Shown here: one piece after another, positions 6,966-64,000 of the stretch
How the letters are laid out: each line of letters starts with the position of its first letter
How positions within the stretch are numbered: position 1 is the stretch's first letter
From: Candidatus Latescibacterota bacterium
GTDB taxonomy: Bacteria; Latescibacterota; UBA2968
NCBI GenBank assembly: GCA_965116885.1
Contig: OZ220741.1
Coordinates: 5,056,001 to 5,120,000, forward strand
Direction of reading: 5' to 3'
Length of the DNA: 64,000 bases
Program-made: the position numbers and the translations under genes
Notes under the pieces: generated by a model
Told to the model about the DNA's origin: nothing
Seen by the model: the letters and a program-made list of their open reading frames with translations, nothing else
Databases searched by the model: none

Positions 6966-7028
6966 CTACTGCTCTGATCGCGGACCAATTGTTAGCCCTG
7001 AGTGGCAAAACTATCCACACGGTTAATC

Positions 7029-28478: not shown

Positions 28479-30002
28479 TCACCCCGGCGGCCAAACTGTT
28501 TTTTTCGTATATGCCTCTTTCAGATCGCGCCAATACCGCCTGCCCTTGTGAACCAGATTTGTCGGCGCAAACCGCTTGTTCAAACCCTTCTCGTGACTCG
28601 ACCGCCCCGTATCGGTTCGATATTGCAATGTGAACCGCATCAACTGTGCGAGCAAATCAAAACGCACATCTGCATATTCTGGATCGGCCCAAACATTCGC
28701 GATCTCACCCGGATCTTCGCGGTGATCGTACAACTCTCCCTCATCCAGGCTCCCGTAAAACACCAGCCGAAAATCGCGCGTGCGAATCGCCGACACCTTG
28801 CCCCCGGGATTGCCCCAATCCCACTCGCAAAATGCCGCGTCTTTGCCATCTGCCCTGCCATTCACAATGGGAACCAAATCGCGCCCATCGCGCCCATCGG
28901 GAATGGGAATATCGCAGAGACGACACAGTGTGGGATACCAATCGACCGATTCGACAATCGCATCACATGTCGCGCCCGATGGACCACCCGGATAGCGCAA
29001 GACAAAAGGAATGCGGTGAATAGAATCGTAAATTCCAAAATTCTTGTGAAACAACCCGTGGTCACCCGCAAAATCCCCGTGATCCGCGCAATACAACACC
29101 ACGGTATTCTCCAACTCTCCCACCTCGTCCAGATAATCCAGCACCCGCCCAATTTCGGAATCAATCGCCGTAATCAGCGCGTAATAACTCGCCAAACAAC
29201 GCTTCAAACGATCGGGATTTGGATCAGCCAGCGGATACCCACACCCATCGGCCAACCGCTCTTGCATAAACTCGGGCTTGCTCGCAAAGCGACGCTCAAA
29301 ATAATCAACCGCACTATCGGGCAACACCATCTCATCGGGATTGTACATATCAAAATGCTCTGCCGCAGGCGCGATCGGCGCATGGGGCCTTTGAAAACTC
29401 ATGTGCAGAAAGAAAGGCCGCTCATCGTCCCGCTCCTTCAAAAACGCCAGCGACTCATTGCCCGTATAATGCTCAATCGAATGCTGGTATGGCAGTTTGG
29501 CTGGCGCACTGCCATCCATTGTATATTCCTGCCCGGGTCTGGCCGAGCCTTCCTCGTAAAAATCCGACAACCCCAGATCTTCCAGATACTTAAAATAGTG
29601 CGTCTCGGTTGGATCCAAATGCGTCGCATCGCACAAATCCGTATATCGGATGCGCTCAAAACCATCTTCATCCCAGCGTCGAACCATGTGCGCCTTGCCA
29701 ATCACAGCCGTTTGATACCCGTATCTCCGAAACTGACACGCCAGCGTATTGGGATTCGCCTCGGGAATCTCCGAATGATCATTGCCAAACATCCGATGCG
29801 TATGGCAATACTGCCCGGTCATAAAACAGATCCGCGACGGCGAGCAAATCGGATTATTGCAAAAAGCGCGTGTAAACACCACCCCCTCATCCGCAATACG
29901 GTCCATATTTGGGGTCCTGACATTTGGATGCGCTGCAAATCCCGTGCAATTGGCATTGTGCTGATCCGACATCAGCCACAACACATTGGGTCTTCTCGCC
30001 AT
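28479..30002 (-). CDS. Formylglycine-dependent sulfatase
   Basis: PNVLWLMSDQH, CSPSRICFMTG, ADHGD, LYDHREDPGE; start MARRPN at 30002 with upstream AGGAG. Confidence 0.92.
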   Translation of the reverse strand: MARRPNVLWLMSDQHNANCTGFAAHPNVRTPNMDRIADEGVVFTRAFCNNPICSPSRICFMTGQYCHTHRMFGNDHSEIPEANPNTLACQFRRYGYQTAVIGKAHMVRRWDEDGFERIRYTDLCDATHLDPTETHYFKYLEDLGLSDFYEEGSARPGQEYTMDGSAPAKLPYQHSIEHYTGNESLAFLKERDDERPFFLHMSFQRPHAPIAPAAEHFDMYNPDEMVLPDSAVDYFERRFASKPEFMQERLADGCGYPLADPNPDRLKRCLASYYALITAIDSEIGRVLDYLDEVGELENTVVLYCADHGDFAGDHGLFHKNFGIYDSIHRIPFVLRYPGGPSGATCDAIVESVDWYPTLCRLCDIPIPDGRDGRDLVPIVNGRADGKDAAFCEWDWGNPGGKVSAIRTRDFRLVFYGSLDEGELYDHREDPGEIANVWADPEYADVRFDLLAQLMRFTLQYRTDTGRSSHEKGLNKRFAPTNLVHKGRRYWRDLKEAYTKKTVWPPG

Positions 30003-30105
30003 AAATTTCTCCTTTCGCAGTGTATGTGTTTGCAGACTATGAGATAAAGCATTAAATTGTCTCTGTTTAATGAAAATAAATTGATCTTTTGCAGAGGAAA
30101 ACACC

Positions 30106-31455
30106 ATGTTTTTTGACAACATCGCGCTCGGCGTACCCAAAATTTTGCTCCCAAATCCCGAAATCGATTGCAACAAATGGGCAGTCATTGCCTGTGACCA
30201 GTATGTACACGACATATCGTATTGGGAAGAAGTCAAAAGCATCGTAGGAGACACGCCATCAACCCTGGACCTCATCTATCCCGAAGTCTATCTCTACGAC
30301 GACGAACACGAAGAACGCATTGCCAGCGTACACAACAACATGAAACACTTTGTCACCGATGGCATTTTTCGCGACGAAACCGAAGGCTTTTTGCTCGTCA
30401 ATCGCGTTCTGCCTTCTGGAAAATCGCGCAAAGGACTCGTCGTAACCCTCGACCTCGAGCATTACGACAGCCGCAGCCAGTCCAAAACCCTCATCCGCAC
30501 AACCGAGGGCACCTATCCCAAAAATCTCGAAGCGCGTTTTGAAGTTCGGGGCAACGCCTCCCTCGAATCACCGCATATTTTAGTACTCATCGACGATCCC
30601 AAAAAAGAAATTATCGAACCCCTCTTTGACGAAAACCATCCCAAGATCGTCGATTTCGAACTCATGATGAATGGAGGACAACTCAAATATCACTTAATCG
30701 ACAACCAAAAAGACATTGCACGCATTGCCCAAAAACTCGCCAAACGCATTGAACCCGATTACATCCATCAGAAGTACGGCGTCGAAAACGAAACACTCCT
30801 CTACGCCATGGGCGATGGCAACCACTCATTTGCCGCCGCGCAAAAAGCGTGGGAAAAAACCAAATCAACACGCAATGATACACAACGCACAGCACAACAT
30901 CCGGCCAGACACGCCATGGTCGAACTGATCAATCTGCACGACGACGCGATAGATATAGAGCCAATCCACAGACTGATCACCCGCGTTGATCCAAAAACCA
31001 CCTGCAACACCCTCGTCACACTGCTCAACACATCGGGCACCCGGGCACGCCTGGAAAAAGTCTCATCCCCCGACGCGCAACATCGTCGCACCGCAGCCCT
31101 ATCATCTGCATCCACCCATTGCCTCCCCTATCGCGCCGCGGGAGACCTGGGCATACTTGTAATCGAAGAACCATCTCAAAGAACCATACCCGAAACAATG
31201 GAAGCCGCGCTCGACCTGTTCACGCGAGAAAACACCGAAGCCGAAGTCGGATTTATCCACGGCGAAGACGTAATCGACGACCTCGGCAACAAACCCGACG
31301 CCCTCGGTTTTTACATGCCTCCCATTTCAAAGGACAGCGTCTTCGAATCCATTGTCCGCTACGGCGCATATCCCCGCAAATCCATATCCATTGGACACGC
31401 AGACGAAAAGCGTTACTATATGGAATGTCGAAGCCTTGTCCGTACTAAACGATAA
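30106..31455 (+). CDS. DUF1015-family protein
   Basis: KWAVIACDQY, LIRTTEGT, YAMGDGNHS, YPRKSISIG, KRYYMECR. Confidence 0.82.
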   Translation: MFFDNIALGVPKILLPNPEIDCNKWAVIACDQYVHDISYWEEVKSIVGDTPSTLDLIYPEVYLYDDEHEERIASVHNNMKHFVTDGIFRDETEGFLLVNRVLPSGKSRKGLVVTLDLEHYDSRSQSKTLIRTTEGTYPKNLEARFEVRGNASLESPHILVLIDDPKKEIIEPLFDENHPKIVDFELMMNGGQLKYHLIDNQKDIARIAQKLAKRIEPDYIHQKYGVENETLLYAMGDGNHSFAAAQKAWEKTKSTRNDTQRTAQHPARHAMVELINLHDDAIDIEPIHRLITRVDPKTTCNTLVTLLNTSGTRARLEKVSSPDAQHRRTAALSSASTHCLPYRAAGDLGILVIEEPSQRTIPETMEAALDLFTRENTEAEVGFIHGEDVIDDLGNKPDALGFYMPPISKDSVFESIVRYGAYPRKSISIGHADEKRYYMECRSLVRTKR

Positions 31456-39283: not shown

Positions 39284-39911
39284 AGATGGTTGTATTCCCG
39301 TTATTTGTTAGATCTATTTCGGGTATAATCGCCCAAAGCGATTGCCCGACCAGACGGTGATAAAGGCTCCAAAAGCTGGCAAGCGGCAAGCCCACCACAT
39401 TGTAGAAGCAGCCAGAGATGGATTGAATAAATGCAGATGCACGCCCCTGCGCACCATAAGCACCGGCTTTGTCCATAGAATCTCCAGTGGCGACATAGCG
39501 CGAGATATCCTCCGATGAGAGCACGCGCATGGTGACGTGAGTAGTAGCAACCTCTGTGAGGGTCTGTCCAGTTTCCGTATCTGTGAGAGCCAACCCTGTA
39601 TAAACCTGATGGGTTTTTCCCGAAAGTTGCGCCAGCATGTCTTCGGCGTGTTTGGCGTCATTCGGTTTCTCAAAAATCGCATTTTCCAATACCACAACAG
39701 TATCGGCACCCAAAATGAGCGCGTGGTCAAAACGATGGGCAACTGCCTGTATTTTGCGCTGTGCGATTTCCCGCACATATTCATCGGGTGGCAAAATGGT
39801 ATCCAAAGACTCATTCGCATTGCTCGGCGCGATCTCAAATGGAACATCCAACAAACGCAACAAATGCGCACGCCTGGGCGAGGCAGACGCGAGAATCAGT
39901 CTCTTATTCAT
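39273..39911 (-). CDS. maf: Maf nucleoside triphosphate pyrophosphatase
   Basis: [29 protein letters not shown]. Confidence 0.95.
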
Positions 39912-40363
39912 ATCTCTGAGTCAATCATCAATGTAACGGGGCCTGTATTGTGAATTTCGACCTGCATATACGCGCCAAAAACGCCGGTTTCAGTATGAAT
40001 GCCAAGAGCGCAGAAGCGCTGGATAAATTGCTCGTACAGGGATTTGGCAATATCTGGCGGAGCAGCCCGATTAAAACTCGGACGGCGACCTTTGCGGGTG
40101 TCGGCGTGCAGGGTAAATTGTGAAACCACCAGCGCCTGCCCACCCGTGTCGAGCAGGGATCTATTCATTTTTCCACGATCGTCCTCAAAAATTCTCAAAT
40201 TTGCACATTTCTCAGCAACATATTCCATATCCGGCAGACCATCGGTATCGCTAATACCCAGCAAAATCAAAAGACCGCCATCAATTTGCCCAACAATTTG
40301 TTCTTCAACGCGAACCGTTGCCACACACACCCGCTGAATCAATGCCCGCACGCTACCCTCCAT
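39908..40363 (-). CDS. dtd: D-aminoacyl-tRNA deacylase
   Basis: [21 protein letters not shown]-x-GPVT. Confidence 0.96.
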
Positions 40364-40605: not shown

Positions 40606-43600
40606 ATGAACACAGATGACAATTTCCACGGGGAACGCCCCGGACCGATAGCCTACATGGCTGGCAACAGTGTAGCCGCCAATCTATTGATGTGGGCTAT
40701 CATCGCCGCCGGGCTGGTATCGCTGACCGGACTCGACCGGGAAGCGTGGCCCACCACTCCCTTCTACCATATTGAAGTGTCGATGGCCTATCCCGGCGCC
40801 ACACCGGAGGAGATCGAGGAGTCGATCGTCGTCAAGATCGAAGACCAGGTCAGTGGATTGGATGACGTGAAGGCGGTCAAGTCCGTATCGGCTCCGGGTA
40901 TCGCATCCGTGCGGGTTCAAATGGATTTCGATACGGACATGGCTCGGGCGTTAAACGATATCGAGTCTGCCGTCAATCGCATACAGTCTTTCCCTGCCAG
41001 TGCCGAACGTCCCAGTTTCAAGGAGATGACCAACCGCATGAGCATGATGCGACTCATTGTTTATGGCGATGTGCCCGAGCGTGCGCTGAAGGAATTGGCG
41101 TATCAGATCAAGGATGAACTCACGGCTCTTCCCTCCGTCTCCCAGGTCGAGGTCAGCGGTATTCGGAAATACGAGATCTCTATCGAGGTACCGCTTCATC
41201 GGCTAAGAGCACTTGGACTCACCCTCACCGACATAGCCAACACGATTCGTCGCAGTTCCCTGGACTTGTCTGCCGGCAGTATCAATACCCGGGAATCCCA
41301 GGTGCGGGTCAGGACCCTGGGGCAGAACTACGACCAACAGGATTTCGAAGATATCGTCCTTCTCAGCAGCAGCGATGGCACAGTCCTGCGGCTTGGCGAT
41401 ATCGCCGAGGTTCGCGACGGCTTTCAGGAAACCGACCTGATTGTCCGGCACCAAAATCATCCCGCTGTGTTCGTCGAGGTCTTCCGGGCCGATGGTGAGC
41501 AAGTGATGGATGTCGCCACGACCGTTCGGGAGCACCTGGCGAACGAGGTGATCCCGTCCCTGCCCGACGAGGTGGGCGTCAGCATGTGGAATGACGAATC
41601 CCAGGTCTATGAGGAACGCGCCGATCTTCTCCTCAAGAACGGTATTCTGGGCCTGTTGCTGGTCTTGATCGCCCTGAGCCTGTTTCTCGAAATCCGGCTC
41701 GCGCTTTGGGTCGCCGTGGGCCTCGCCGTTTCGGGAATCGGCGCCCTCGCCATCATGATGGCATTCGACGTGGCGATCAACACCATCAGCCTGTTCTCCT
41801 TTGTCCTCGCCATAGGAATCATCGTCGACGATGCCATCGTCGTGGCCGAGCACATTCAATACGAACGCAAGCGGGGAACACCCGGAGTCACGGCCGCGAT
41901 TCGCGGCGTACGGCGGATCAAGGTGCCGTTGACGTTCGCAGTTCTGACGTCGGTGGTGGCCTTCGTCCCGTTGCTGTTCATTCCCGGCGGCGTCGGTGAG
42001 GTGTGGCGGGCCCTGCCGATCATCATGATCGCCATGCTGCTGGTTTCCCTGGTCGAATCGCTGCTGGTGCTGCCCAACCATCTGTCCCACCTGCACGGCC
42101 CGGAGTGGGTGCCGGCCAATGCCTTCGACCGGTTCTTCGCGCGGCTCCAAGGGCGCGTTGACGCGCTGCTGAACAGGTTCGTCCAAGGCCCGCTGGACCG
42201 GGCCCTGCAGTTCGCCACCGACCAGCCCGCGGTGACGATGTCGGGGGCTGTGGGAATGCTCGTGCTGAGCATCTCCCTATTGCCCGCGGGAATCGTTCCT
42301 ACCACGCTGGCCGCTGACGTGGAGGGGGATATCGCGACGGTCGTCCTGGAGATGCCCGATGGGGCGACCGCTCCGAGGACGTACGAAGTGGCCCAGGAAC
42401 TGGAGGCCGCCGGCCACCGGGTCATCGAACGACTCTCGCGCGACCGGCCCGGGGACGCGCCACCGCTGCTGACCGGCGTAACGGTGACCGTCGGACAGGG
42501 CTCGAGACTCGCGGGCGGGCTCAATCCGGAGCCGACCCTCAATCCGCAAGCCAACATCGCCACCATTGAGTTCAAACTCCTGGGCGCCCAACAGAGAGAA
42601 ATCTCCACCGGAGAGGTCGTGCAGGCATGGCGGGAAGAGGTGGGGGTGCTGCCCTACGTACGCGGCATCACCTTCAGCGGCGAGGCCTTCGACTTGGGCA
42701 ACCCGGTGGAGGTTGTGTTGTCGCATCCGGACCCGGAGCACCTTGCCCGGATTGCAAACTCCGTGGTCAATGGACTCCGCGGGGTGGGAGGCGTTTTCGA
42801 CATACGTTCAGACCACACCCCGGGCATCCCGGAAGTTCAACTCGGGTTGCGGCCAGAAGCGCGAACCCTCGGTCTCACACTCGACGATCTGGCCGGGCAG
42901 GCGCGAGCCGCATTCTTCGGCGCAGAGGCCATCCGGATACAGCGCGGTCGGGAGGAGGTCCGGGTCTATGTGCGCCTGCCCTCCGATGAACGAAAATCCA
43001 TCACCGATGTCGAAGGATACCTGCTCCGTACGCCGGGCGGGGCCGAGGTCCCGGTCCTGAGTGTGGCCTCCCTGAACCCGGGGGTGTCGCCGCCGGCCAT
43101 TCGACGGAAGGACGGCCAGCGCGTCGTCACGGTCACTGCGGACGTGGATGCTTCGGTGATTTCAGGCGACGAAGCCAACGACATCCTGACCAATTCGATC
43201 CTCGCGGATTTGACCACCCTGCACCCGGACCTGACATACAGCTTCGGAGGGGAACAACAACAGCAGCTCGAATCCCTGGATGCGCTGTATCGCGGATTTG
43301 CGATTGCCCTGCTCTTGATCTTCGCGCTGCTCGCCATCCCCCTCCGATCCTATACAAAGCCGTTCATCATCATGGCCGTCATCCCCTTCGGGTTCATCGG
43401 AGTGATCCTGGGGCACTGGGTCCTGGGAGTAGCTCTGAGTGCCGTATCTTTCATGGGTATCTTCGGCCTGAGTGGGGTGGTCGTGAACGATTCCCTGGTC
43501 ATGATCGATTTCATCGATCAGAGAATCGGAGAAGGTACCTTGGCAAGGACGGCGATCGTGGAGGGCGCCAAGGGGCGCTTTCGTCCGATCATGCTCACTT

Positions 43601-43800
43601 CCGTGACTACGTTCCTCGGCTTCACTCCCCTTATTCTGGAACGCGCCATCCAAGCCCAGTTCCTGATCCCCTTTGCCGCCTCGCTCGGTTGCGGCATTCT
43701 CTTTACTACGGCTATACTCATGATGATCGTTCCCGCACTTTACACCATCCATCTGCGTCTGATTGCTTCGCGGGGCCGTTCCGGCGCCGGTACCGGGTAA
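40606..43800 (+). CDS. RND (AcrB/AcrD/AcrF-family) permease
   Basis: YPGATPEEIEE, GIIVDDAIVVAE, GVVVNDSLV, RFRPIMLTS; 1064 aa with two large periplasmic loops. Confidence 0.95.
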   Translation: MNTDDNFHGERPGPIAYMAGNSVAANLLMWAIIAAGLVSLTGLDREAWPTTPFYHIEVSMAYPGATPEEIEESIVVKIEDQVSGLDDVKAVKSVSAPGIASVRVQMDFDTDMARALNDIESAVNRIQSFPASAERPSFKEMTNRMSMMRLIVYGDVPERALKELAYQIKDELTALPSVSQVEVSGIRKYEISIEVPLHRLRALGLTLTDIANTIRRSSLDLSAGSINTRESQVRVRTLGQNYDQQDFEDIVLLSSSDGTVLRLGDIAEVRDGFQETDLIVRHQNHPAVFVEVFRADGEQVMDVATTVREHLANEVIPSLPDEVGVSMWNDESQVYEERADLLLKNGILGLLLVLIALSLFLEIRLALWVAVGLAVSGIGALAIMMAFDVAINTISLFSFVLAIGIIVDDAIVVAEHIQYERKRGTPGVTAAIRGVRRIKVPLTFAVLTSVVAFVPLLFIPGGVGEVWRALPIIMIAMLLVSLVESLLVLPNHLSHLHGPEWVPANAFDRFFARLQGRVDALLNRFVQGPLDRALQFATDQPAVTMSGAVGMLVLSISLLPAGIVPTTLAADVEGDIATVVLEMPDGATAPRTYEVAQELEAAGHRVIERLSRDRPGDAPPLLTGVTVTVGQGSRLAGGLNPEPTLNPQANIATIEFKLLGAQQREISTGEVVQAWREEVGVLPYVRGITFSGEAFDLGNPVEVVLSHPDPEHLARIANSVVNGLRGVGGVFDIRSDHTPGIPEVQLGLRPEARTLGLTLDDLAGQARAAFFGAEAIRIQRGREEVRVYVRLPSDERKSITDVEGYLLRTPGGAEVPVLSVASLNPGVSPPAIRRKDGQRVVTVTADVDASVISGDEANDILTNSILADLTTLHPDLTYSFGGEQQQQLESLDALYRGFAIALLLIFALLAIPLRSYTKPFIIMAVIPFGFIGVILGHWVLGVALSAVSFMGIFGLSGVVVNDSLVMIDFIDQRIGEGTLARTAIVEGAKGRFRPIMLTSVTTFLGFTPLILERAIQAQFLIPFAASLGCGILFTTAILMMIVPALYTIHLRLIASRGRSGAGTG

Positions 43801-43831
43801 TGCACTTCATGATGCAGGGAGGCAGAAACCG

Positions 43832-45865
43832 ATGGCTAATAATACCGAGGATTTGACGCCCCAATCGCTAAGTCTCACCGAAGAGCTCATCCTGATGCTC
43901 CTCAACGAGGAGACTGGCTACTTTCACCAGGTACCCGGCTGGCATTTGAACTGCGCCGTGGTCGGTGCCGTGCTCGCGGAGCTTTCACTCAGATCGCGCA
44001 TCGACACGGACCTGGAATCCCTGTTCCTCGTGGACGAGTCGGAAACGGGGAGACCTACCCTGGACCCCATTCTGAAAGAAATCGCAGCCGAATCTGTTCA
44101 ACGGAACGCCCAGTACTGGATCGAACGGCTCGCTCCCCGTGCGGAATCGATCATTGATTCAGTTCTGGACCGCCTGGTTGACCTGAAGATCCTGGAATAT
44201 CACGACGGTGAATTCTGGACACTGGCTCCTACCGTCTGGCGTGGGGAACTGTCCAGCAAGTCGGAAGAGGGCACTGCAGGCCAGTTCATAAAAACGCGGA
44301 TCAGCAAGGTCATCTTCACCGACGAGATTCCCGATCCGAGAGATGTCATCATTATCTGCCTCGTCAATACCTGCGATGTCTTTCGTTTCATATTCCAGCT
44401 CGACGACGAGGCGGAGGAGCGCATCGAGTTCATCTGCAAGATGGATCTGATCGGCCGCTCCCTGGCCTCTGCGGTCTCTCAGAACCTCGCTGGCCCAGCC
44501 CTCCGACGTCCTGCCCTTGCCAGAAAAATTCCGACGGTTTCGCTGCCCAAGCTGCTGCTGAACCCGCATAGTCGAGACGGCAACCTGAACGCGCTCTTCG
44601 GAAACCTTGCAGAGGAGTACGGTCCGGTGTTCCAGATCCGCCCTCCCTTCTCGAAGCCCATGATCTTCCTGGCCGGGCTCGAGACAAACCGCTGGGTGCA
44701 CAAGCGCGGGCGCATGTACCTGAGAGCCAGGGACTACTTCAGCGACTTCGAGAAGGTCTACGGCGCGTCCGGCGTCCTGCCCGCCCTGGACGGAGCCGAT
44801 CACTTCCGGCTTCGCCGGTCCCTGTCGCCCGCCTATTCTGCCGTGAGGCTGGGAGGGCAACTGGACCAGCTCTACAATCAGGGGCGCAAGTACATGGCGA
44901 GCTTGACTGTTGGGGACTCATACCGCGCCACGTCCATGTGCCGGGAGATGGTGAACGCCCAGCTCTCCCCACTGTTCATCGGCGTCGATACCCAGGACCT
45001 CATGGACGACCTGATGGCGTACAAGGAACGGGCCCTCAGCGTTCACGTCGCCAAGCTCCTGCCCAGATTCACGCTGAACACCCCGGGCATGAGACGCCGG
45101 GCTAAAGCCCTGGACACACTGATGCAGCGGGTCCAGGACATCCATACCCCTGCCCAACGGGCGGACAGCCCGCGGGACCTGGTGGACGATTACCTCAGCC
45201 TGCACGCGAGCGACCCGCAGTTTCTCCCAGAGTCCAACCTGCTGTTCTCCTTTTCCGCGGCCTTGATTGCCAGCGTGTACCTCGGCGATACGTTCAGCCT
45301 CGTAGTCTATGCCATGGTGTCGCAGCCCGACCTCTACGCCAGAATCCAGGCCGAAGCAGATGCCCTGTTCGCCAAGGGAGACCCCGAGAGAGAGGATTTC
45401 ACCCCCGCCAACATTGACGTTACCCACCGCTTCCTCATGGAGTGCATGCGCATGTACCCGATCGTCTCCATGTCCATTCGGAACGTGATGAATACGTGCG
45501 TGGTCGAGGACTACGAGCTGCCCATGGGGGAACGGATCCACATCGCCATGACCGCCACGCATTACATGAGCGAGGTCTTTCCCGACCCCTACAAGTTCGA
45601 CATCGACCGCTACCTGCCGTCGCGCCATGAGCATCGCAGCCCCGGGTACGCCCCGTACGGGCTGGGCACGCACAAGTGTCTCGGCACCCGGTGGATGGAG
45701 CTGCACCTGGCGGCCAACTTGTTGATGCTGGCGCACTACTTCACGATTGAGGTGTCGCCGGCGAAGTACAAGCACAAGCTCCGTTTCAGTCCGTTCCCGT
45801 CGCTGAAACCGAGCAAGAAGCTGAAGTTCCGCATCTCCCAGCAGAGACGGGAGCTGTTCACCTGA
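43832..45865 (+). CDS. GPP34/GOLPH3-like domain fused to cytochrome P450
   Basis: N-term LSLTEELILMLLNEETG...GAVLAELSLRSRID...TGRPTLD; C-term ECMR (ExxR), FPDPYKFDIDRY, YGLGTHKCLG heme ligand; RBS GGAGG before ATG 43832. Confidence 0.88.
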   Translation: MANNTEDLTPQSLSLTEELILMLLNEETGYFHQVPGWHLNCAVVGAVLAELSLRSRIDTDLESLFLVDESETGRPTLDPILKEIAAESVQRNAQYWIERLAPRAESIIDSVLDRLVDLKILEYHDGEFWTLAPTVWRGELSSKSEEGTAGQFIKTRISKVIFTDEIPDPRDVIIICLVNTCDVFRFIFQLDDEAEERIEFICKMDLIGRSLASAVSQNLAGPALRRPALARKIPTVSLPKLLLNPHSRDGNLNALFGNLAEEYGPVFQIRPPFSKPMIFLAGLETNRWVHKRGRMYLRARDYFSDFEKVYGASGVLPALDGADHFRLRRSLSPAYSAVRLGGQLDQLYNQGRKYMASLTVGDSYRATSMCREMVNAQLSPLFIGVDTQDLMDDLMAYKERALSVHVAKLLPRFTLNTPGMRRRAKALDTLMQRVQDIHTPAQRADSPRDLVDDYLSLHASDPQFLPESNLLFSFSAALIASVYLGDTFSLVVYAMVSQPDLYARIQAEADALFAKGDPEREDFTPANIDVTHRFLMECMRMYPIVSMSIRNVMNTCVVEDYELPMGERIHIAMTATHYMSEVFPDPYKFDIDRYLPSRHEHRSPGYAPYGLGTHKCLGTRWMELHLAANLLMLAHYFTIEVSPAKYKHKLRFSPFPSLKPSKKLKFRISQQRRELFT

Positions 45866-45879
45866 CGACTTGGCTCCTT

Positions 45880-46941
45880 GTGGAGCCAGGGGGGAAATAC
45901 CACGAAATGCGGCTGTGCAAACTATCGAGAGAGCTGAGAGATGCGTACCGGGAATCGGACGTCGCACGTCGAGTGCAGCACTTCGACGGCTGGCTCGACC
46001 GGGCGGCGCTGGAGCCCGGTGGCGCGGGCGGGTACGATCACACGGAAACAGTGAAAGACTATTACGACCTTTGCAGCGGGTTCATGGTGTGGGGCTGGGG
46101 CCAGTCCCTGCACTTCGCGCCCCTCACGCCTCATGAGAGTCTGGAGGAGTCCAAGATCCGGCATCAGCGGCTGATGATTTCCAAGTTGGAACTGCAACAG
46201 GGTATGACGGTGATCGACGTTGGTTGTGGAGTCGGCGCCCCCATGCGCCGCGTCGTCCGTGAGGCTGGTGTCAGGGTTGTAGGAATCAACATCAATGAGA
46301 TCCAGTTGGAAGAGGCGAAGAGGTTGAACGCCGAGGCGGGGCTTGATCACATGGTCGATTTCGAGACGTGCAGCTTCATAGACATGAGCACCATCGAGGA
46401 CGGCACCTTCGACCGGGGTTATGCCATAGAGTCAACGTGCCATGCACCGGACAAGCAACGCGCCTTCGAGGAGGTATTCCGCGTACTGAAACCCGGTGCC
46501 CTGTTCTGGGGGCAGGAAATGTGTCTGACGGGCAAGTTCGATCCGAAGGACGACCGGCATCGGGCCATCAAGGAGGATCTCATGCGCGGCATTGCGCTGA
46601 AGGACATCGCCACCTTCGGGGAAGTGAATCACGCGCTCGAAGCCGCGGGATTCCAAGTCATGGAAGGGATGGACCGGGCGATCCAGGAAGGACCCTCCAC
46701 ACCTTGGTATCAACCCATGGAGAATCGCCATGGGACGGTCGGAAACGCCTTGCGCAGGCTTCCGTGGGGTCGTAAAGCCGTCATCACAGGATCGAAGCTG
46801 GCTGAAGTACTGCGGCTTTTTCCGAAGGGCTCCGCGGAAGTCATCCGACTCCTGGATCGGACCGCGGAGGCTTATATCGCGGGCGGCAAGGCGGGTATCT
46901 TTACGCCGCTGTACTGTTTCTTGGCTCGCAGGCCTCTTTAG
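45880..46941 (+). CDS. Sterol 24-C-methyltransferase (Erg6/SMT-like)
   Basis: YYDL...WGWGQSLHFA, DVGCGVGAP, YAIESTCHAP, EVFRVLKPG, GGKAGIFTP...ARRP; alternative start ATG 45907. Confidence 0.9.
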   Translation: MEPGGKYHEMRLCKLSRELRDAYRESDVARRVQHFDGWLDRAALEPGGAGGYDHTETVKDYYDLCSGFMVWGWGQSLHFAPLTPHESLEESKIRHQRLMISKLELQQGMTVIDVGCGVGAPMRRVVREAGVRVVGININEIQLEEAKRLNAEAGLDHMVDFETCSFIDMSTIEDGTFDRGYAIESTCHAPDKQRAFEEVFRVLKPGALFWGQEMCLTGKFDPKDDRHRAIKEDLMRGIALKDIATFGEVNHALEAAGFQVMEGMDRAIQEGPSTPWYQPMENRHGTVGNALRRLPWGRKAVITGSKLAEVLRLFPKGSAEVIRLLDRTAEAYIAGGKAGIFTPLYCFLARRPL

Positions 46942-46973
46942 GCCCGCCTGGCGCGCCTTCGCGCGGGCCCCTC

Positions 46974-48062
46974 TTAGTCGGAGACCGAGTCCCCACTTCC
47001 CTTCGAAATCGTCGGATCGGGATAGAACTGCCGGCAATACCGGCGGTACTTCCCTATGGGGCCATCTGCCCGACACAGCCTGGGGACAGACCGATACTGC
47101 TTCCTTTCCCAGATCACCACATCCTGCAGGACATCCCGTTTCTGTTGTGACATCAAAATGCGATTCATCAGCCTGTGGCGCAGCATCATCGGCAGAAACC
47201 CCAGACCTGAGATAAATCGCCGGGGCTTGCGGATTTCCCGCATCTGGCTGACCAGTGCAAGATCGATGAGGGTGCCGTCAATGGGGGTTGCGAGTACCCA
47301 CAATCTCGCATTCATATCAATAGTTTTCTCGTGGATCTCGACGAAGGAATAGCCCAGGCCATAGACGTGGGTGATAGCTGAGGTTTCGTACACGAGGTCC
47401 TTTACACCCAGGATCCTGCGAACGCGTTTGAAGTCGAAGCAACTCTTCAAATAGGCACCATCTACCGTTACCGAACCGATCGGATTCACATTGTCGTAAC
47501 CATGCACGTAGCGCAGGTGTCCCAGATCTACAGAGTTCTCTGTGGTTTCCTGGGGATGGCCGCGGAACCGGAGTATGTTGAATCCCAGTTCACCCCACTC
47601 TTGTCCAGTGGTTGGCTCGGCTGGCAAATCCCACTGCGACGGCCGACCGCCGCTCCCGAACCAGGCGAAGACCATGCCGAGAATCTCTCTGGTCTCATAT
47701 ACCTTCAGTTTCGCGGCTCTGGGTGCCGGGGCATTCGGCGTCGCAACGCATTGTCCGGTCGTATCGAACTCAAACCCGTGGAACGGACAAACGAGCCGAC
47801 CATTGTATATCTTCCCACCGACCTCCGGCCCCAGGTGCGAACCCAGGTGCGGACATACCGCGTCGGCCACGCAGACACGGCCTGCATCGTCGCACCAGAC
47901 AACGATTTCTTCGCCCAGCCACGTCTTCTCGATCAGTTTCTCTCGCAGAACGGATTCGCGGCTTGCGACGAAATACCACCCCTCGGGGAAAGGCGGTAGC
48001 GCATCAGCGACATTCCTGATCCGTCGATTAGTTCGCAAGCCTGCTGATTCCGTCAAAGACAT
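46974..48062 (-). CDS. Rieske non-heme iron oxygenase, cholesterol 7-desaturase (Neverland/DAF-36) / KshA-like
   Basis: FPEGWY, CPHLG, CPFHG, ENSVDLGHLRYVHG, QDVVIWERK, DGPIGKYRRYCRQFY. Confidence 0.85.
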   Translation of the reverse strand: MSLTESAGLRTNRRIRNVADALPPFPEGWYFVASRESVLREKLIEKTWLGEEIVVWCDDAGRVCVADAVCPHLGSHLGPEVGGKIYNGRLVCPFHGFEFDTTGQCVATPNAPAPRAAKLKVYETREILGMVFAWFGSGGRPSQWDLPAEPTTGQEWGELGFNILRFRGHPQETTENSVDLGHLRYVHGYDNVNPIGSVTVDGAYLKSCFDFKRVRRILGVKDLVYETSAITHVYGLGYSFVEIHEKTIDMNARLWVLATPIDGTLIDLALVSQMREIRKPRRFISGLGFLPMMLRHRLMNRILMSQQKRDVLQDVVIWERKQYRSVPRLCRADGPIGKYRRYCRQFYPDPTISKGSGDSVSD

Positions 48063-48162: not shown

Positions 48163-50514
48163 TTATATCCCAAATCCCCCGCGTCGGTGTTCAAACTTTA
48201 TTTGCGGGATGTCCTTAATATTGATTTTGAAAAAGAACCCCTTATTAAAACCCGCGGGATACCACGAAAACCGAGCCTCCCAACAGTGGAGGTCGCGGTA
48301 AAGCGATAGGCTTTGCGCCGAGATTTTGGCATCGGGCAGAACATCGATATTGATCGAATAGTCAATTCTTATGAATTGGCGAGGATTGATGCCAACATCT
48401 GCTTTGACCCAGGATGTTTTGCTCGTTGTATTGCCGAACCGCCGCATCGCAATATAGTGAGAAAGATTGAATCGCCACGGCTGGCTGGCACCGCCGAAAT
48501 CGCTGTACAGATCGCGTTCAAAGCCAAAATCTGCGCCATATCCCCCCCTGTATCCACCGCCATATCCAGCATCATACCCAGGATCGTATCCATCGGGGAG
48601 AGCGGACTGGACAACCATATTGCCTCGTCCACCTTGACCACCGGAAAAACGAAAATTGGAGGTAATGGTCAAGTTCTGCATGCGCGGATGAAAAAGCGAT
48701 CGCTGGCCTGTACTGTCATAGAGCGTATGGGTCATCGCAATGCGAACATCCACGCGGCGATCTGGTTTGAGAGACGCGCTGGTGCGAAGCGGACGCCATT
48801 TTTGCCTCGGTGCGTCAAAATTGTATCCCATTGACAGATTGAGAGTCGCCAGAGTAAAGCGACGCACATCGTCGTCGCGCTGAGTTTTGAGTTCAAAAGT
48901 ATTGCCGATATTAAAATTTATGCTGCGTCTGGCATCGTCCCATCTGCGATTGCCTCCAAAACCCATTGTTCCCTGAAAAATACTTCCCGATTGGTTGTAA
49001 TTGAAATTGATTCGAGGCTGAAAGCGATGCCGAATACCGCGCAACCGGCCGATTTGCGGTTGGAAAATGCCGTATAATGTCGTGCCCGAAGTCAGTGTCG
49101 CATTGTAAGACGTGCGGCGGGTTGTCGAATCGGTATCGCTATATATAAACTCTTCGCCAAAATTAAAGCCCGGTGTGAGATTCAGCCACCCCATGGGGCG
49201 GTGTTGGCTGTTGACTGTGACGCGGTTTTGAAGAGAGACGCGCTCCGTATTGGGTGCAGGATCGGGATTGCGCGCAAAGTTATTCGACAAGGTACTCGAA
49301 AAACCGTAATAAAAGGCGCGATACCACGGTCCCGTAACAGATGTGGGTTCATTACCTCCAAATATGCGGCGTCTGTTTTGCCGAAAGCTGAGACGAGGAA
49401 AGCCCTGAAAACTATTATTTTTTGTCCTTAGATCGCGGTAATACGTCAGACTACCGTCAATGCTACGCCCGGATTCTGTCCAGCGTTTGTCAAAAGAAAA
49501 ACTGGACCTCAGTTGCCGATTGAGATAGCGATAGAGATTATTGCTATTGCGTCGATCAAAGTTGGTACTGGTCGAAAACTGCCCGCTCCCCCTGATATTG
49601 GTCGTGGCGTTGAGGCGTTGCTGGTGTTGCAAATTAAAGCGCCAATTGTGAGCCGTAGCATCGCCAGAGGTATCGTGGTCGTATCCGATATCCATTGATC
49701 CACTGAATCGATTGCGTCTGGCATAGGCAAATCGCGATTCGAGCAAAAATCCACCGCGCTCACGCAAAGTACTCTTAACCGTGGCATCCCAGTATTCACT
49801 CGGTGCGAAATAATACCCCACATTGTGGACAAAAATGCCATCGCGGCTGTTGCTACCCACACCCGGCGTTAGCAATCCCGATTGCCGCCCGCGCTTGACT
49901 GGAAAAACGAAAAAAGGAACCCAGAAAACGGGAATCGGGCCAATGCGAAAAGTAACAGACCGTCCAATCGCTTTATCGTCTTGCAAAATACGCACATTTT
50001 TGCACAAAAAATCGTAGTGTACATGGTCGCGATCACAGGTACTCAAAGAGAGATCCAGAGCATTCAGCGCTTTTTGACCATCGAGTGCAATGCGGGCACC
50101 GCGATAGTGTTTGCGCTGATGTGACGCGCGTCCATCTCGCACCCTACCGCGTTCTGTATCCAGGTTATAGACCATGTACTCACCCGATATCTTTTCGCTA
50201 CCGCGGGTAAATTGGGGCGGTCCCACAGTTTTTGCTCCGGTGGAATCGGGCAATGCCCGTGCCGTAACGTGCCGCGTGTTTTGATCGTACGTAATATGAC
50301 CGGCTTTGAGTTGTAAATCGCGATAGCGCAAGGTGGCATTACCGATCAATTCGACGCGTCTGGTCTGTACGTAATAAACAACCTCGGCGGCGTCAAATGT
50401 TATGGAATCGCCAGCAGTTTTTTGCGGCAAAACGGGTTGGCACCATCCCGGCGTAATCGCAAATAGCAGGAACAAAACGAGCCACACGGCTTGTGTTTTA
50501 TTACGAGTCTTCAT
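48163..50514 (-). CDS. lptD: Putative LPS assembly protein LptD
   Basis: Signal peptide; OstA-like N-domain, STCD, RQSGLLTP, GYYFAPSEYWD, RDLHCWE; start likely ATG 50514. Confidence 0.85.
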   Translation of the reverse strand: MKTRNKTQAVWLVLFLLFAITPGWCQPVLPQKTAGDSITFDAAEVVYYVQTRRVELIGNATLRYRDLQLKAGHITYDQNTRHVTARALPDSTGAKTVGPPQFTRGSEKISGEYMVYNLDTERGRVRDGRASHQRKHYRGARIALDGQKALNALDLSLSTCDRDHVHYDFLCKNVRILQDDKAIGRSVTFRIGPIPVFWVPFFVFPVKRGRQSGLLTPGVGSNSRDGIFVHNVGYYFAPSEYWDATVKSTLRERGGFLLESRFAYARRNRFSGSMDIGYDHDTSGDATAHNWRFNLQHQQRLNATTNIRGSGQFSTSTNFDRRNSNNLYRYLNRQLRSSFSFDKRWTESGRSIDGSLTYYRDLRTKNNSFQGFPRLSFRQNRRRIFGGNEPTSVTGPWYRAFYYGFSSTLSNNFARNPDPAPNTERVSLQNRVTVNSQHRPMGWLNLTPGFNFGEEFIYSDTDSTTRRTSYNATLTSGTTLYGIFQPQIGRLRGIRHRFQPRINFNYNQSGSIFQGTMGFGGNRRWDDARRSINFNIGNTFELKTQRDDDVRRFTLATLNLSMGYNFDAPRQKWRPLRTSASLKPDRRVDVRIAMTHTLYDSTGQRSLFHPRMQNLTITSNFRFSGGQGGRGNMVVQSALPDGYDPGYDAGYGGGYRGGYGADFGFERDLYSDFGGASQPWRFNLSHYIAMRRFGNTTSKTSWVKADVGINPRQFIRIDYSINIDVLPDAKISAQSLSLYRDLHCWEARFSWYPAGFNKGFFFKINIKDIPQIKFEHRRGGFGI

Positions 50515-50549
50515 AATTTTAAAGTGTGTTGTGGATTTTGTGGAGTACA

Positions 50550-50578
50550 AACGTAAATTCGGGATTGGAAAAAGTCAA
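50550..50578 (-). promoter_or_regulatory. Putative sigma70 promoter of lptD
   Basis: TTGACT-17 bp-TACGTT. Confidence 0.4.
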
Positions 50579-63078: not shown

Positions 63079-63144
63079 TGCGATGCTGTTCCTGACCATA
63101 TAAGCTATAGGACGTTCCCGTGCGGAGCCATCTTCCCGCTTCAT
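63079..63144 (-). pseudogene. 5' stub (~22 codons) of an RND permease
   Basis: MKREDGSARERPIAYMVRNSIA vs MNTDDNFHGERPGPIAYMAGNSVA at 40606; ATGA overlap with the adaptor stop codon. Confidence 0.7.
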
Positions 63145-64000
63145 GGATCACCTCTAACCGCAGTCTGCACCACCATGCCTTCAGTTGCAAACTGAATCCC
63201 GCCTATGACGACCGCCTGTCCGGCTTCCAGAGTGCCGGTTACGAACACCTTATCATCGGAACGCTGAAGGACGCGCACCGGGACGATGGTCAATAGTTTG
63301 TCATCGCGCACTGCCCAAATCTCGTTGCCTGGCCTGAGTGCTGACCGTCGCAAGATGAAGTACCGGTCTGGGATGATCCCCTCAATTCGTACTTTCACAA
63401 ACTTACCCACAAGAAGGGGCGGGCCAGGATCAGCATTTGCATCATCGCCATCTGCTCCAGCCCAGGTGCCGCTTGCAAAGGGGTCCGGAACGCGTACGAT
63501 AGCGTTGATGGTACGCGTCTGTTCGTCCAGAGATGCCTCCGCTCGGTCCACGTAGCCCTCCCAGGCGTAGCTCCTTTCGCCGTATTCAGCAATGACGCGA
63601 GCCTTGACCCGCCTGTCTCCGTCGCCCGCTTCCAACTCCCATAGGCCGGGGATGAGAACCGCGTTGGCGTCGGACAGGGGAACCACTACTTCGACAGCGT
63701 CGGCCGCGTAAAGTCGCCCTACGCTCTGGCCAGCTACCACGAATTGCCCCACATCTATCGACTCGATCCGCACGATTCCGCTGAAAGGCGCGCGCACCTC
63801 TGTGCGGGACAAAGCCAACTCAGCGTCAGCGAGCATGGCACTATCTCTGCCTAAAGCGGCTTGGGCAGCCTCGAGCTGAGGCTGCCGCAATACCAGAGGG
63901 CCAGCCTCCTTCAGCGACGTGCTATCCGCCTGACGGCGTTTATATTGCGCGTACTCAGCGCGTGCGATCCGGGACTCTTCCTCCTCCTGGAGAAGTACTA
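63141..64000 (-). CDS. RND periplasmic adaptor (membrane fusion protein), 5' end outside window
   Basis: RTEVRAPFSG, VGQFV, LDEQTRT, LLVGKFV, VPVRVL. Confidence 0.9.
   Translation of the reverse strand, partial: VLLQEEEESRIARAEYAQYKRRQADSTSLKEAGPLVLRQPQLEAAQAALGRDSAMLADAELALSRTEVRAPFSGIVRIESIDVGQFVVAGQSVGRLYAADAVEVVVPLSDANAVLIPGLWELEAGDGDRRVKARVIAEYGERSYAWEGYVDRAEASLDEQTRTINAIVRVPDPFASGTWAGADGDDANADPGPPLLVGKFVKVRIEGIIPDRYFILRRSALRPGNEIWAVRDDKLLTIVPVRVLQRSDDKVFVTGTLEAGQAVVIGGIQFATEGMVVQTAVRGDP

Follow-up and report, generated by a model that had tools for sequence, protein, structure and literature searches.

A gene encoding a protein of 677 amino acids (aa), in which a GPP34 domain is joined in frame to a cytochrome P450, lies at positions 43832..45865 of a 64,000-nucleotide stretch of DNA from Candidatus Latescibacterota bacterium (assembly GCA_965116885.1, contig OZ220741.1, positions 5,056,001 to 5,120,000), referred to here as the window. 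The genome is a single contig of 5.56 Mb that is 98.4% complete. The fusion belongs to a clade of P450s whose I-helix is shortened and devoid of the usual threonine, and it is encoded within a four-gene cassette that differs from its surroundings in composition and recurs across phyla. The features of the locus are as follows (window coordinates).

43832..45865, + strand: GPP34-P450 fusion gene, 677 aa from its ATG
43874..44479, + strand: GPP34/GOLPH3-fold domain, aa 15-216 (Pfam, profile and Foldseek)
44525..45847, + strand: cytochrome P450 domain, about aa 232-672 (Pfam, Foldseek and invariant residues)
45257..45292, + strand: I-helix motif AALIASVYLGDT, aa 476-487
45656..45685, + strand: heme-thiolate loop YGLGTHKCLG, aa 609-618, with Cys616
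40606..48062, unstranded: four-gene compositional island, between dtd (39908-40363, - strand) and lptD (48163-50550, - strand)
40606..43800, + strand: RND (AcrB-type) inner-membrane transporter, 1064 aa, Pfam ACR_tran E 3e-160, GC 0.61
45907..46941, + strand: sterol C-methyltransferase homologue, 344 aa from ATG 45907, in an open reading frame (ORF) that opens with GTG 45880
46974..48062, - strand: Rieske [2Fe-2S] non-heme-iron oxygenase with a KshA_C domain, 362 aa, Pfam Rieske and KshA_C

The fusion and its two domains

ATG 43832 is the likely start of the fusion gene because the resulting length fits that of the orthologues (673-686 aa) and a GGGAGG sequence stands 8-9 nt 5' of it; an alternative in-frame TTG lies upstream at 43763 and would give a protein of 700 aa. 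Two Pfam profiles match. GPP34 (PF05719; E 1.2e-28) does so over positions 1-199 of its 201, with 101 bits where the cut-off is 29.1, and p450 (PF00067; E 4.1e-34) does so at aa 422-664 only, which corresponds to positions 210-458 and thus to the C-terminal half of that profile. An AlphaFold2 model of the whole protein, built from an 84-row alignment, reaches a pLDDT of 88.3 and a pTM of 0.85, with low confidence confined to aa 1-10, 139-147 and the linker at 222-228, and structure prediction followed by Foldseek recovers both a GOLPH3/Vps74 and a P450 fold. An initial annotation of the window had proposed a GPP34 domain fused in frame to a complete P450, and on this point Pfam, AlphaFold2 and Foldseek agree. 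Both Pfam domains are found in 120/120 of the best homologue clusters (75-99% identity), relatives are encoded in 309 stretches from one-genome-per-species collections, and a DNA contig from a sponge metagenome spans positions 43886-45207, including the domain junction, without an indel. A sequencing or assembly error as the origin of the fusion, which the initial annotation had itself raised, is ruled out by these three observations. The two domains are conserved to a similar degree between phyla (N-domain 66-76%, P450 domain 66-83%).

The fusion class itself is already known. According to the main text of a study that appeared in January 2025 (Microbiome 2025;13:4, PMC11706023), proteins combining GPP34 and P450 are named GPP34_L and are confined to sponge symbionts, which belong to many phyla; 92.6% of the sponge-associated genomes of Gemmatimonadota and Latescibacterota encode them, and both the short and the long GPP34 forms are expressed. 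Flanking genes are analysed there for the short form only, and the word sterol is absent from the main text (PMC11706023). The window protein carries PF05719 and PF00067 in one polypeptide, is associated with sponge metagenomes and shows the same sponge restriction, which makes it a member of the GPP34_L class, and the novelty that the initial annotation had assumed is correspondingly lower.

The P450 fold is complete as modelled. In Foldseek the last 450 residues match whole P450s (TMt 0.81-0.83, about 20% identity), the best being CYP184A1 (7wzl) and the heme domain of Methylococcus capsulatus CYP51 (6mcw, 7snm, 7jj1); for 7wzl and 6mcw the TMt is 0.83 and the alignments span 462-472 columns. 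These bacterial CYP51 proteins and CYP184A1 are the closest solved relatives in sequence as well (E 6.5e-18). The heme-thiolate loop, FxxGxxxCxG, is present as YGLGTHKCLG, and C616, G612 and G618 are invariant in 84/84 rows of the alignment. The K-helix ExxR reads ECMR at 537 (E537/R540) and the PERF region reads FDIDRY at 589 with R593; in the same 84 rows E537 and R593 never vary, and R540 is retained in at least 90%. In the ESM Atlas the P450 domain matches only clusters with the generic name "cytochrome P450". CYP51 resembles the window P450 in that it too occurs as a fusion protein in bacteria, and CYP51 binds sterols. Unlike the Methylococcus CYP51-ferredoxin, however, the window P450 has an N-terminal GOLPH3-fold partner rather than a C-terminal ferredoxin. 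Membership of the CYP51 family was considered and rejected, given an identity of about 20%, a sequence match limited to aa 406-651 in the C-terminal half, and the presence of ASVYLG instead of AGHHTS in the I-helix.

The sequence LIASVYLGDT (aa 478-487) lies within a model helix that runs from 467 to 496. In a HMMER alignment with CYP51, A-S-V-Y-L-G pairs with A-G-H-H-T-S, whereas a MAFFT alignment with 60 relatives pairs ASV-YLG, with a gap of one residue, with AGLDT, the AG(L/I)(D/E)T pattern being one that the genome's two other fusions share with most relatives, whether fused or not. Whichever alignment is used, the alcohol position falls on Y483 or L484 and the acid is gone, and no conserved Thr or Ser is found in aa 482-490 across the orthologues by sequence and profile alignment. 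Judged from these alignments the (A/G)Gx(D/E)T(T/S) acid-alcohol pair is missing, and the I-helix is one residue shorter than that of its relatives. The initial annotation had described the pair as missing or displaced. Its first alternative is upheld, as is the absence of the canonical I-helix Thr. The second, a displaced catalytic pair formed by D486 and T487, is rejected: T487 is replaced by Met or Ala in the orthologues of Chloroflexota, Actinomycetota, Pseudomonadota and Binatota, and D486 by S, A or N in sister subfamilies. Among the 120 closest clusters at 90% identity the motif is AALIASVYLGDT in 108, ends in GDM in six and reads ALIASVYLGDT in one, the remaining five lying outside the pattern match. 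In a maximum-likelihood tree of the P450 domain the shortened Thr-less I-helix corresponds to a single clade (29/83 rows, SH-aLRT 100), which comprises the window orthologues together with P0121, P0125/P0126, P0127/P0176, P0128 and P0137. Y483 is kept throughout the clade except in P0137. For mechanistic study the clade offers P450s in which a shortened I-helix without Thr occurs naturally.

The N-domain, modelled alone, has a pLDDT of 82 and gives eight Foldseek matches at E<=0.001, 8/8 of which are GOLPH3 or Vps74 chains (TMq 0.57-0.70). A profile built from ten GPP34-domain sequences matches GOLPH3 (3kn1) over nearly its full length with an E of 4.4e-9. The domain shares with GOLPH3 and Vps74 (3kn1, 9qpq, 2zih) the fold (TM 0.57-0.70, about 19% identity) and the beta-hairpin, whose strands lie at 121-124 and 128-131 in the model. 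Unlike these proteins it is fused to an enzyme, belongs to a bacterium that has no Golgi, and lacks the basic pocket for phosphatidylinositol 4-phosphate (PtdIns4P, PI4P). In GOLPH3 this pocket is lined by W81, R90, R171 and R174, and its function has been probed by paired alanine substitutions, as described in the text of PMC2806290. In the window protein the profile alignment places P35, V44, E105 and I108 at these positions, while W37 and R103 are found two residues off, so that a shifted pocket is conceivable. The domain has an isoelectric point (pI) of 4.4 and a net charge of -20 over 220 residues, an overall charge that does not agree with a positively charged membrane-binding face, and all ten bacterial GPP34 domains examined are likewise acidic (-11 to -21). 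The P450 domain has a pI of 9.2. The initial annotation's suggestion of membrane targeting in the manner of GOLPH3 and PI4P loses ground with the replacement of the four pocket residues and the acidity of the domain. Both features, read from the sequence, also argue against PI4P binding of the kind proposed in the published effector idea.

More likely, the acidic GPP34 domain lies against the basic P450 domain or attaches it to a partner in the membrane. Given the pTM of 0.85, the two domains seem to be packed in a fixed arrangement. A two-chain prediction of the N-domain with the heme-containing P450 domain lends this weak support, its score being 0.55 (runs 0.00, 0.55 and 0.55) against 0.00 for the best of three controls; at least 46% of the contacts agree between runs and the partner pLDDT is at least 73. 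The mark used for this score is reached by 116/157 solved complexes and 2/215 mismatched pairs, and the band up to 0.60 holds 18/157 of the solved complexes and both of the mismatches. Rare fusions of GPP34 with Rieske and with PotA proteins are also reported in the main text of PMC11706023, and because of these a role of GPP34 as a general adaptor for lipid-handling enzymes would fit better than that of a PI4P reader.

The cassette, its spread and the canonical paralogues

The RND gene is the first of the cassette and stops 31 nt before the fusion gene. The methyltransferase most likely starts at ATG 45907, since its orthologues are 344 aa long, and it matches the Pfam families CMAS, Methyltransf_11 (PF08241, E 4e-17) and Sterol_MT_C (PF08498, 53.9 bits against a cut-off of 21.7). 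With a class I S-adenosylmethionine (SAM) core and a Sterol_MT_C domain it is, on its domain content, a putative sterol methyltransferase (SMT) of the C-24 type. The Rieske gene is convergent with the methyltransferase gene. Its product finds KshA as its best match in the PDB (4qdc, E 5.5e-23) and retains intact metal ligands (CxH...CxxH and DxxHx4H). Its nearest ESM Atlas clusters carry the automatic name cholesterol 7-desaturase, which serves as a lead only, and its match to the SdmA model is weak (E 3.8e-8, the cut-off being 600 bits). It thus resembles KshA and the Neverland-type cholesterol 7-desaturases in its Rieske and KshA_C domains, but unlike KshA it has no linked KshB-type reductase, and its assignment is by homology. 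The neighbours (methyltransferase, KshA-type Rieske protein and RND transporter), which the initial annotation left unmentioned, strongly back a lipid or sterol connection of the fusion.

The island has a GC content of 0.600, compared with a genome mean of 0.511 (standard deviation 0.026), which places it at the 99.9th percentile of 7.5-kb windows of the genome, and the GC content at third codon positions is 0.66-0.84 in the cassette genes versus 0.48-0.51 in dtd and lptD. The flanks are of a housekeeping nature, with priA, rodZ, maf and dtd on one side and lptD and a lysA-like gene on the other. No HlyD or OEP gene adjoins the cassette in this genome. A HlyD-type membrane-fusion gene is present about 15 kb downstream of the cassette (window 63141-63998, - strand), and its product is 57% identical to the HlyD protein that precedes RND in other cassette loci.

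The wider distribution was surveyed at the best 80 of the 309 loci, with flanks of 8 kb where the contig allowed; several contigs measure 3.5-7 kb, so the counts are lower bounds. By their titles these loci derive from Latescibacterota, Gemmatimonadota (including Candidatus Palauibacter), Rhodothermales, Dehalococcoidia/Chloroflexota/SAR202, Acidimicrobiia, Gammaproteobacteria, Vicinamibacteria and Binatia, and relatives of the fusion span at least eight phyla. The fusion in them is 67-99% identical to the window protein. By tblastn the methyltransferase is found in 66 of the 80 loci, the Rieske protein in 69, RND in 32, and lptD or dtd in five; the methyltransferase adjoins the fusion in all 66, one match (L046) being merely 41% identical, and an RND orthologue lies directly upstream of the fusion in all 32. 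Other neighbours recur: a FAD amine-oxidase-like protein in 37 loci, MMPL with Sterol-sensing and Patched domains in 32, HlyD in 24 and OEP in 13, followed by an MFS transporter (9 loci), an ERG4/ERG24 reductase (7) and a LppX/LprAFG lipoprotein (7). The MMPL protein with these two domains represents the arrangement of the Chloroflexota type. Compared with the window proteins, the fusions encoded by five complete genomes from other phyla are 71-79% identical and the housekeeping Dtd proteins 47-53%, and in the P450-domain tree the phyla are intermixed. This contrast in identity, the intermixing in the tree and the GC island together point to repeated horizontal transfer of the cassette.

Sequence nearly identical to that of the window is found in sponge-metagenome runs of nine studies, and six such runs are RNA libraries. 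Contigs from the RNA libraries cover parts of both domains and bridge the RND/fusion and the fusion/methyltransferase boundaries. At the 3' end of RND (window 43781-43791), shortly before the start of the fusion gene, contigs from a sponge DNA run and from an RNA library carry 6-base deletions when compared with the window, which look like strain variation.

SMT homologues of uncultured sponge-associated bacteria have been described before, in the clusters of Brown et al. 2023 (PMC10070321), where according to Supplementary Data 1 they stand with oxidosqualene cyclase (OSC), ERG1, ERG11, ERG24 and sdmA/sdmB. The present cassette is similar in pairing an SMT homologue with a Rieske oxygenase. 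Unlike those clusters for de novo synthesis it contains no OSC, ERG1, ERG11, ERG24 or sdmA/sdmB. Neither the text of PMC10070321 nor its three spreadsheets contain the words P450, Rieske or GPP34. The squalene/oxidosqualene cyclase profile PF13243 finds no match in the genome of the window, nor in 4/5 of the other cassette genomes examined, the fifth giving a partial match of 36.9 bits in a 426-aa frame.

Two additional arrangements were seen in relatives of the window clade and its neighbours. A Rhodothermales chromosome encodes a second fusion, of a sister subfamily (I-helix ASLYLG, 63% identical to P0125), that follows genes for a second KshA-like Rieske protein and a FAD oxidoreductase. 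This trio (L097:3209-8150) is co-directional, lies about 12 kb from the window-type cassette and is followed by an IS110-family transposase and GmrSD. A methyltransferase homologue of 477 aa (P0327), whose Pfam list includes KshA_C, may represent a fusion, a read-through into the convergent Rieske region or a gene-calling artefact.

Of the four GPP34 genes in the genome of the window, one is a short form and three encode fusions. The two fusions outside the window have the canonical I-helix (AGLDT) and match the Pfam p450 profile over its full length (E about 1e-53); like the window P450 they have no linked redox partners. Their loci in the genome are the following.

600538-603641: paralogue locus, fusion of 655 aa
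4410161-4413294, - strand: paralogue locus, fusion of 661 aa

The genes of the 655- and 661-aa paralogues each overlap, at the 3' end, with a gene for a sulfotransferase (433 and 437 aa). One paralogue is flanked by large leucine-rich repeat (LRR) proteins and duplicated sigma-54 activators, the other by a PhyH dioxygenase, a GFO/IDH oxidoreductase, a methyltransferase and a gene of the inositol-monophosphatase family, which is the family of CysQ, the phosphatase of 3'-phosphoadenosine 5'-phosphate (PAP).

Among 151 sampled genomes of the phylum, GPP34 or fusion matches were obtained in 64, belonging to 8/46 genera. The 30 matching loci listed, with flanks of 1.5 kb, comprise 20 of the canonical and 10 of the window type. 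A sulfotransferase, counted when at least 300 aa aligned at 35-100% identity either upstream or downstream, accompanies 14 of the 20 canonical loci, an Acyl_transf_3 protein two and neither of them four (one of which, L124, is cut at a contig end). A separate paralogue from Gemmatimonadota is also followed by an Acyl_transf_3 gene. At the ten window-type loci RND lies upstream in 10/10, and the methyltransferase is found within 1.5 kb in 6/10. The canonical-I-helix fusions thus sit beside enzymes that decorate hydroxyls and the Thr-less clade beside SMT. A scan of metagenome contigs with the canonical paralogue gave five weak loci, none of them usable. Elsewhere (G153 2166559-2170572) two GPP34-P450 genes stand in tandem; their identity to the canonical paralogue is 45-47%, and within 1.5 kb of them there is no transferase.

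Possible roles of the cassette in lipid tailoring

On balance the cassette probably serves to tailor a host sterol, or a sterol-like lipid, with the P450 acting as an oxidase in concert with the methyltransferase. It is proposed that the Thr-less clade supplies the P450 of a lipid-tailoring cassette that moves horizontally and also comprises a transporter, a methyltransferase of the sterol C-24 type and a Rieske protein of the KshA/Neverland type; in some genomes these are joined by a FAD oxidoreductase or an ERG4/ERG24 reductase. The transporter would be an AcrB-type RND protein in Gram-negative hosts and an MMPL protein with a sterol-sensing domain in Chloroflexota. As the genome encodes no squalene/oxidosqualene cyclase, the substrate is most likely a sponge-derived sterol, which the P450 would oxidise together with the methyltransferase and of which the pump would move either the substrate or the product. 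SMT chemistry consists of an attack on a side-chain double bond. Because the canonical and the Thr-less clades pair with different transferases, the window P450 may supply or process side-chain unsaturation, and in the preferred order of steps it would install the unsaturation that the methyltransferase needs. The desaturase chemistry suggested in the initial annotation may draw indirect support from this pairing with a methyltransferase that requires an olefin. The canonical paralogues may install hydroxyls for the adjacent sulfo- or acyltransferases. A more specific version, in which the Thr-less P450 desaturates or activates the side chain of a host cholesterol-type sterol, the methyltransferase alkylates it, the pump returns the product and GPP34 is a general adaptor for lipid-oxidising enzymes, is tentative and, taken in all its parts, rather doubtful. 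The fusion architecture, the clade, the linkage within the cassette, the island and the missing cyclase are observations; the sterol nature of the substrate, its host origin, the type of reaction and the role of the N-domain are what we infer.

Several points weigh against this proposal. The sterol nature of the substrate is taken from the family names of the neighbours, and these families were assigned by clustering all ORFs and running Pfam on one representative per cluster. The order in which the P450 precedes the methyltransferase is a guess, and loss of the I-helix Thr alone is no sign of desaturation; for the sterol C-22 desaturases CYP710 and CYP61, which may be a precedent, the literature gave no usable statement on a substitution of this Thr. 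The methyltransferase is missing in 14 of the 80 loci and, within 1.5 kb, in 4/10 of the window-type loci of the phylum, several contigs being short in both sets. No ferredoxin or reductase Pfam domain was found in ORFs of at least 150 aa between 28 and 64 kb of the window, as the initial annotation had stated for the vicinity, and both oxygenases would need such a partner; since the intergenic gaps measure 31, 41 and 32 nt, the cassette has no room for a small redox gene either. The RNA-library contigs are compatible with co-transcription without proving it, as a contig is not a single transcript and DNA may be carried over. The P450-domain tree comes from a quick maximum-likelihood search on 83/84 rows, from which P0132 was dropped owing to its short domain. 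Finally, the genome contains two tandem genes of the squalene/phytoene synthase family SQS_PSY (825324-826918), and an endogenous substrate of the squalene or phytoene type, that is an acyclic triterpenoid or carotenoid, is possible.

These last genes bear on the alternative that the lipid being tailored is not a sterol but some other isoprenoid or lipid, for example a chain of the squalene or carotenoid type to which an SMT-like enzyme adds methyl groups. Enzymes of this kind have a precedent in the triterpene methyltransferases of Botryococcus, the methyltransferase of the cassette is named by homology only, and the recurrent FAD amine-oxidase-like neighbour belongs to a Pfam family that includes phytoene desaturases and HpnE. 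However, four families associated with sterols are found repeatedly near the fusion (Sterol_MT_C, KshA_C, ERG4/ERG24 and the sterol-sensing domain), the structural neighbours of the P450 include lanosterol-bound CYP51 and the cassette is restricted to animal-associated bacteria, and this alternative is regarded as unlikely. A small probability of the same order is given to the P450 being a redox-partner-free peroxygenase or a (hydro)peroxide isomerase that does not activate O2, whatever its substrate. CYP74, CYP8A and CYP152 are precedents for such P450s, and the missing acid-alcohol pair, the clade-wide conservation of the shortened I-helix and the lack of a linked ferredoxin or reductase would all be in keeping with it. 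Linked redox partners are, however, absent for most bacterial P450 genes, including the canonical paralogues; O2-using Thr-less P450s exist, P450eryF being an example, and the invariant Y483 could relay protons.

Steroid catabolism, with the P450 beginning side-chain degradation, the KshA-like oxygenase opening the rings and host sterol serving as a carbon source, appears improbable. CYP125 starts the degradation of sterol side chains in this way, the best solved relatives of the Rieske protein are KshA 9-alpha-hydroxylases (E 5.5e-23), and the PF13243 scans revealed no de novo sterol pathway. However, C-methyltransferases are not known to take part in the catabolism of steroids. Moreover, beta-oxidation, KstD and Hsa-type genes are absent among the recurrent neighbours, although no genome-wide search was made for them, and ERG4/ERG24 together with the efflux-type RND, HlyD and OEP proteins point to tailoring and export. 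The sole functional idea published for GPP34-P450 is that of the main text of PMC11706023, in which GPP34 proteins are proposed to be secreted PI4P-binding effectors that block phagosome maturation. This idea, which takes in the P450 fusions and would have them bind host PI4P on phagosomes with the P450 as an accessory, is consistent with the confinement of the family to sponge (and coral) symbionts and with the expression of GPP34 in A. aerophoba metatranscriptomes (PMC11706023, main text), as well as with its patchy occurrence in 8/46 genera of the phylum and with the eukaryote-like LRR proteins flanking one paralogue. Against it stand P, V, E and I at GOLPH3 W81, R90, R171 and R174, the acidity of ten out of ten GPP34 domains (-11 to -21), and the absence of a hydrophobic or signal-peptide-like N-terminus from the window protein, type III, IV and VI secretion being outside this check. 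The fusion gene is also wedged between the RND and methyltransferase genes with gaps of 31 and 41 nt, and a heme enzyme that requires electron donors would be an odd cargo, so that for the fusions this role is considered highly improbable.

The GPP34-P450 fusion is among the most consistent genomic markers of sponge symbiosis. GPP34_L is treated as one class in the main text of PMC11706023, whereas here it is split into clades, the window clade being Thr-less, encoded with a sterol-type cassette and devoid of the PI4P pocket. A search for prior reports of the clade, the cassette, the pairing of the paralogues and the lost pocket, with the supplementary PDFs of PMC11706023 and of Brown et al. 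outside its range, surfaced PMC11706023 only. The I-helix clade, the mobile sterol-type cassette in cyclase-less symbionts, the pairing of paralogues with transferases and the missing PI4P pocket therefore appear to be new. The travel of the cassette between phyla in genomes that have no cyclase raises the testable question of whether symbionts edit the sterols of their host, and it bears on the debate over whether side-chain-alkylated steranes are a sponge or a bacterial record and on the origin of sponge sterol sulfates. If the more specific version, with desaturation or activation and then alkylation of the side chain of host sterols, is correct, bacteria would contribute directly to the unusual side-chain-alkylated 'sponge biomarker' sterols, and sulfated sterols or lipids of sponges would be products of the sister paralogues and their sulfotransferases.

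Other genes of related character were observed in the same genome. A second cluster of the lipid type (genome 3154001-3170000) encodes an MpaB/Lcp-like oxygenase, HlyD, RND and an unfused P450 of 475 aa; its RND permease is 61% identical to that of the window. Beside this P450 cluster lie another MpaB-like oxygenase, MMPL, a LolA-like protein and a DUF1302 protein. The window itself contains an ORF of 2186 aa (7002-13562, + strand) and a sulfatase gene (28479-30275, - strand, 598 aa), and with more sulfatase genes beside the short GPP34 gene and in the 3154001-3170000 cluster, sulfated substrates seem to be a theme of this genome.

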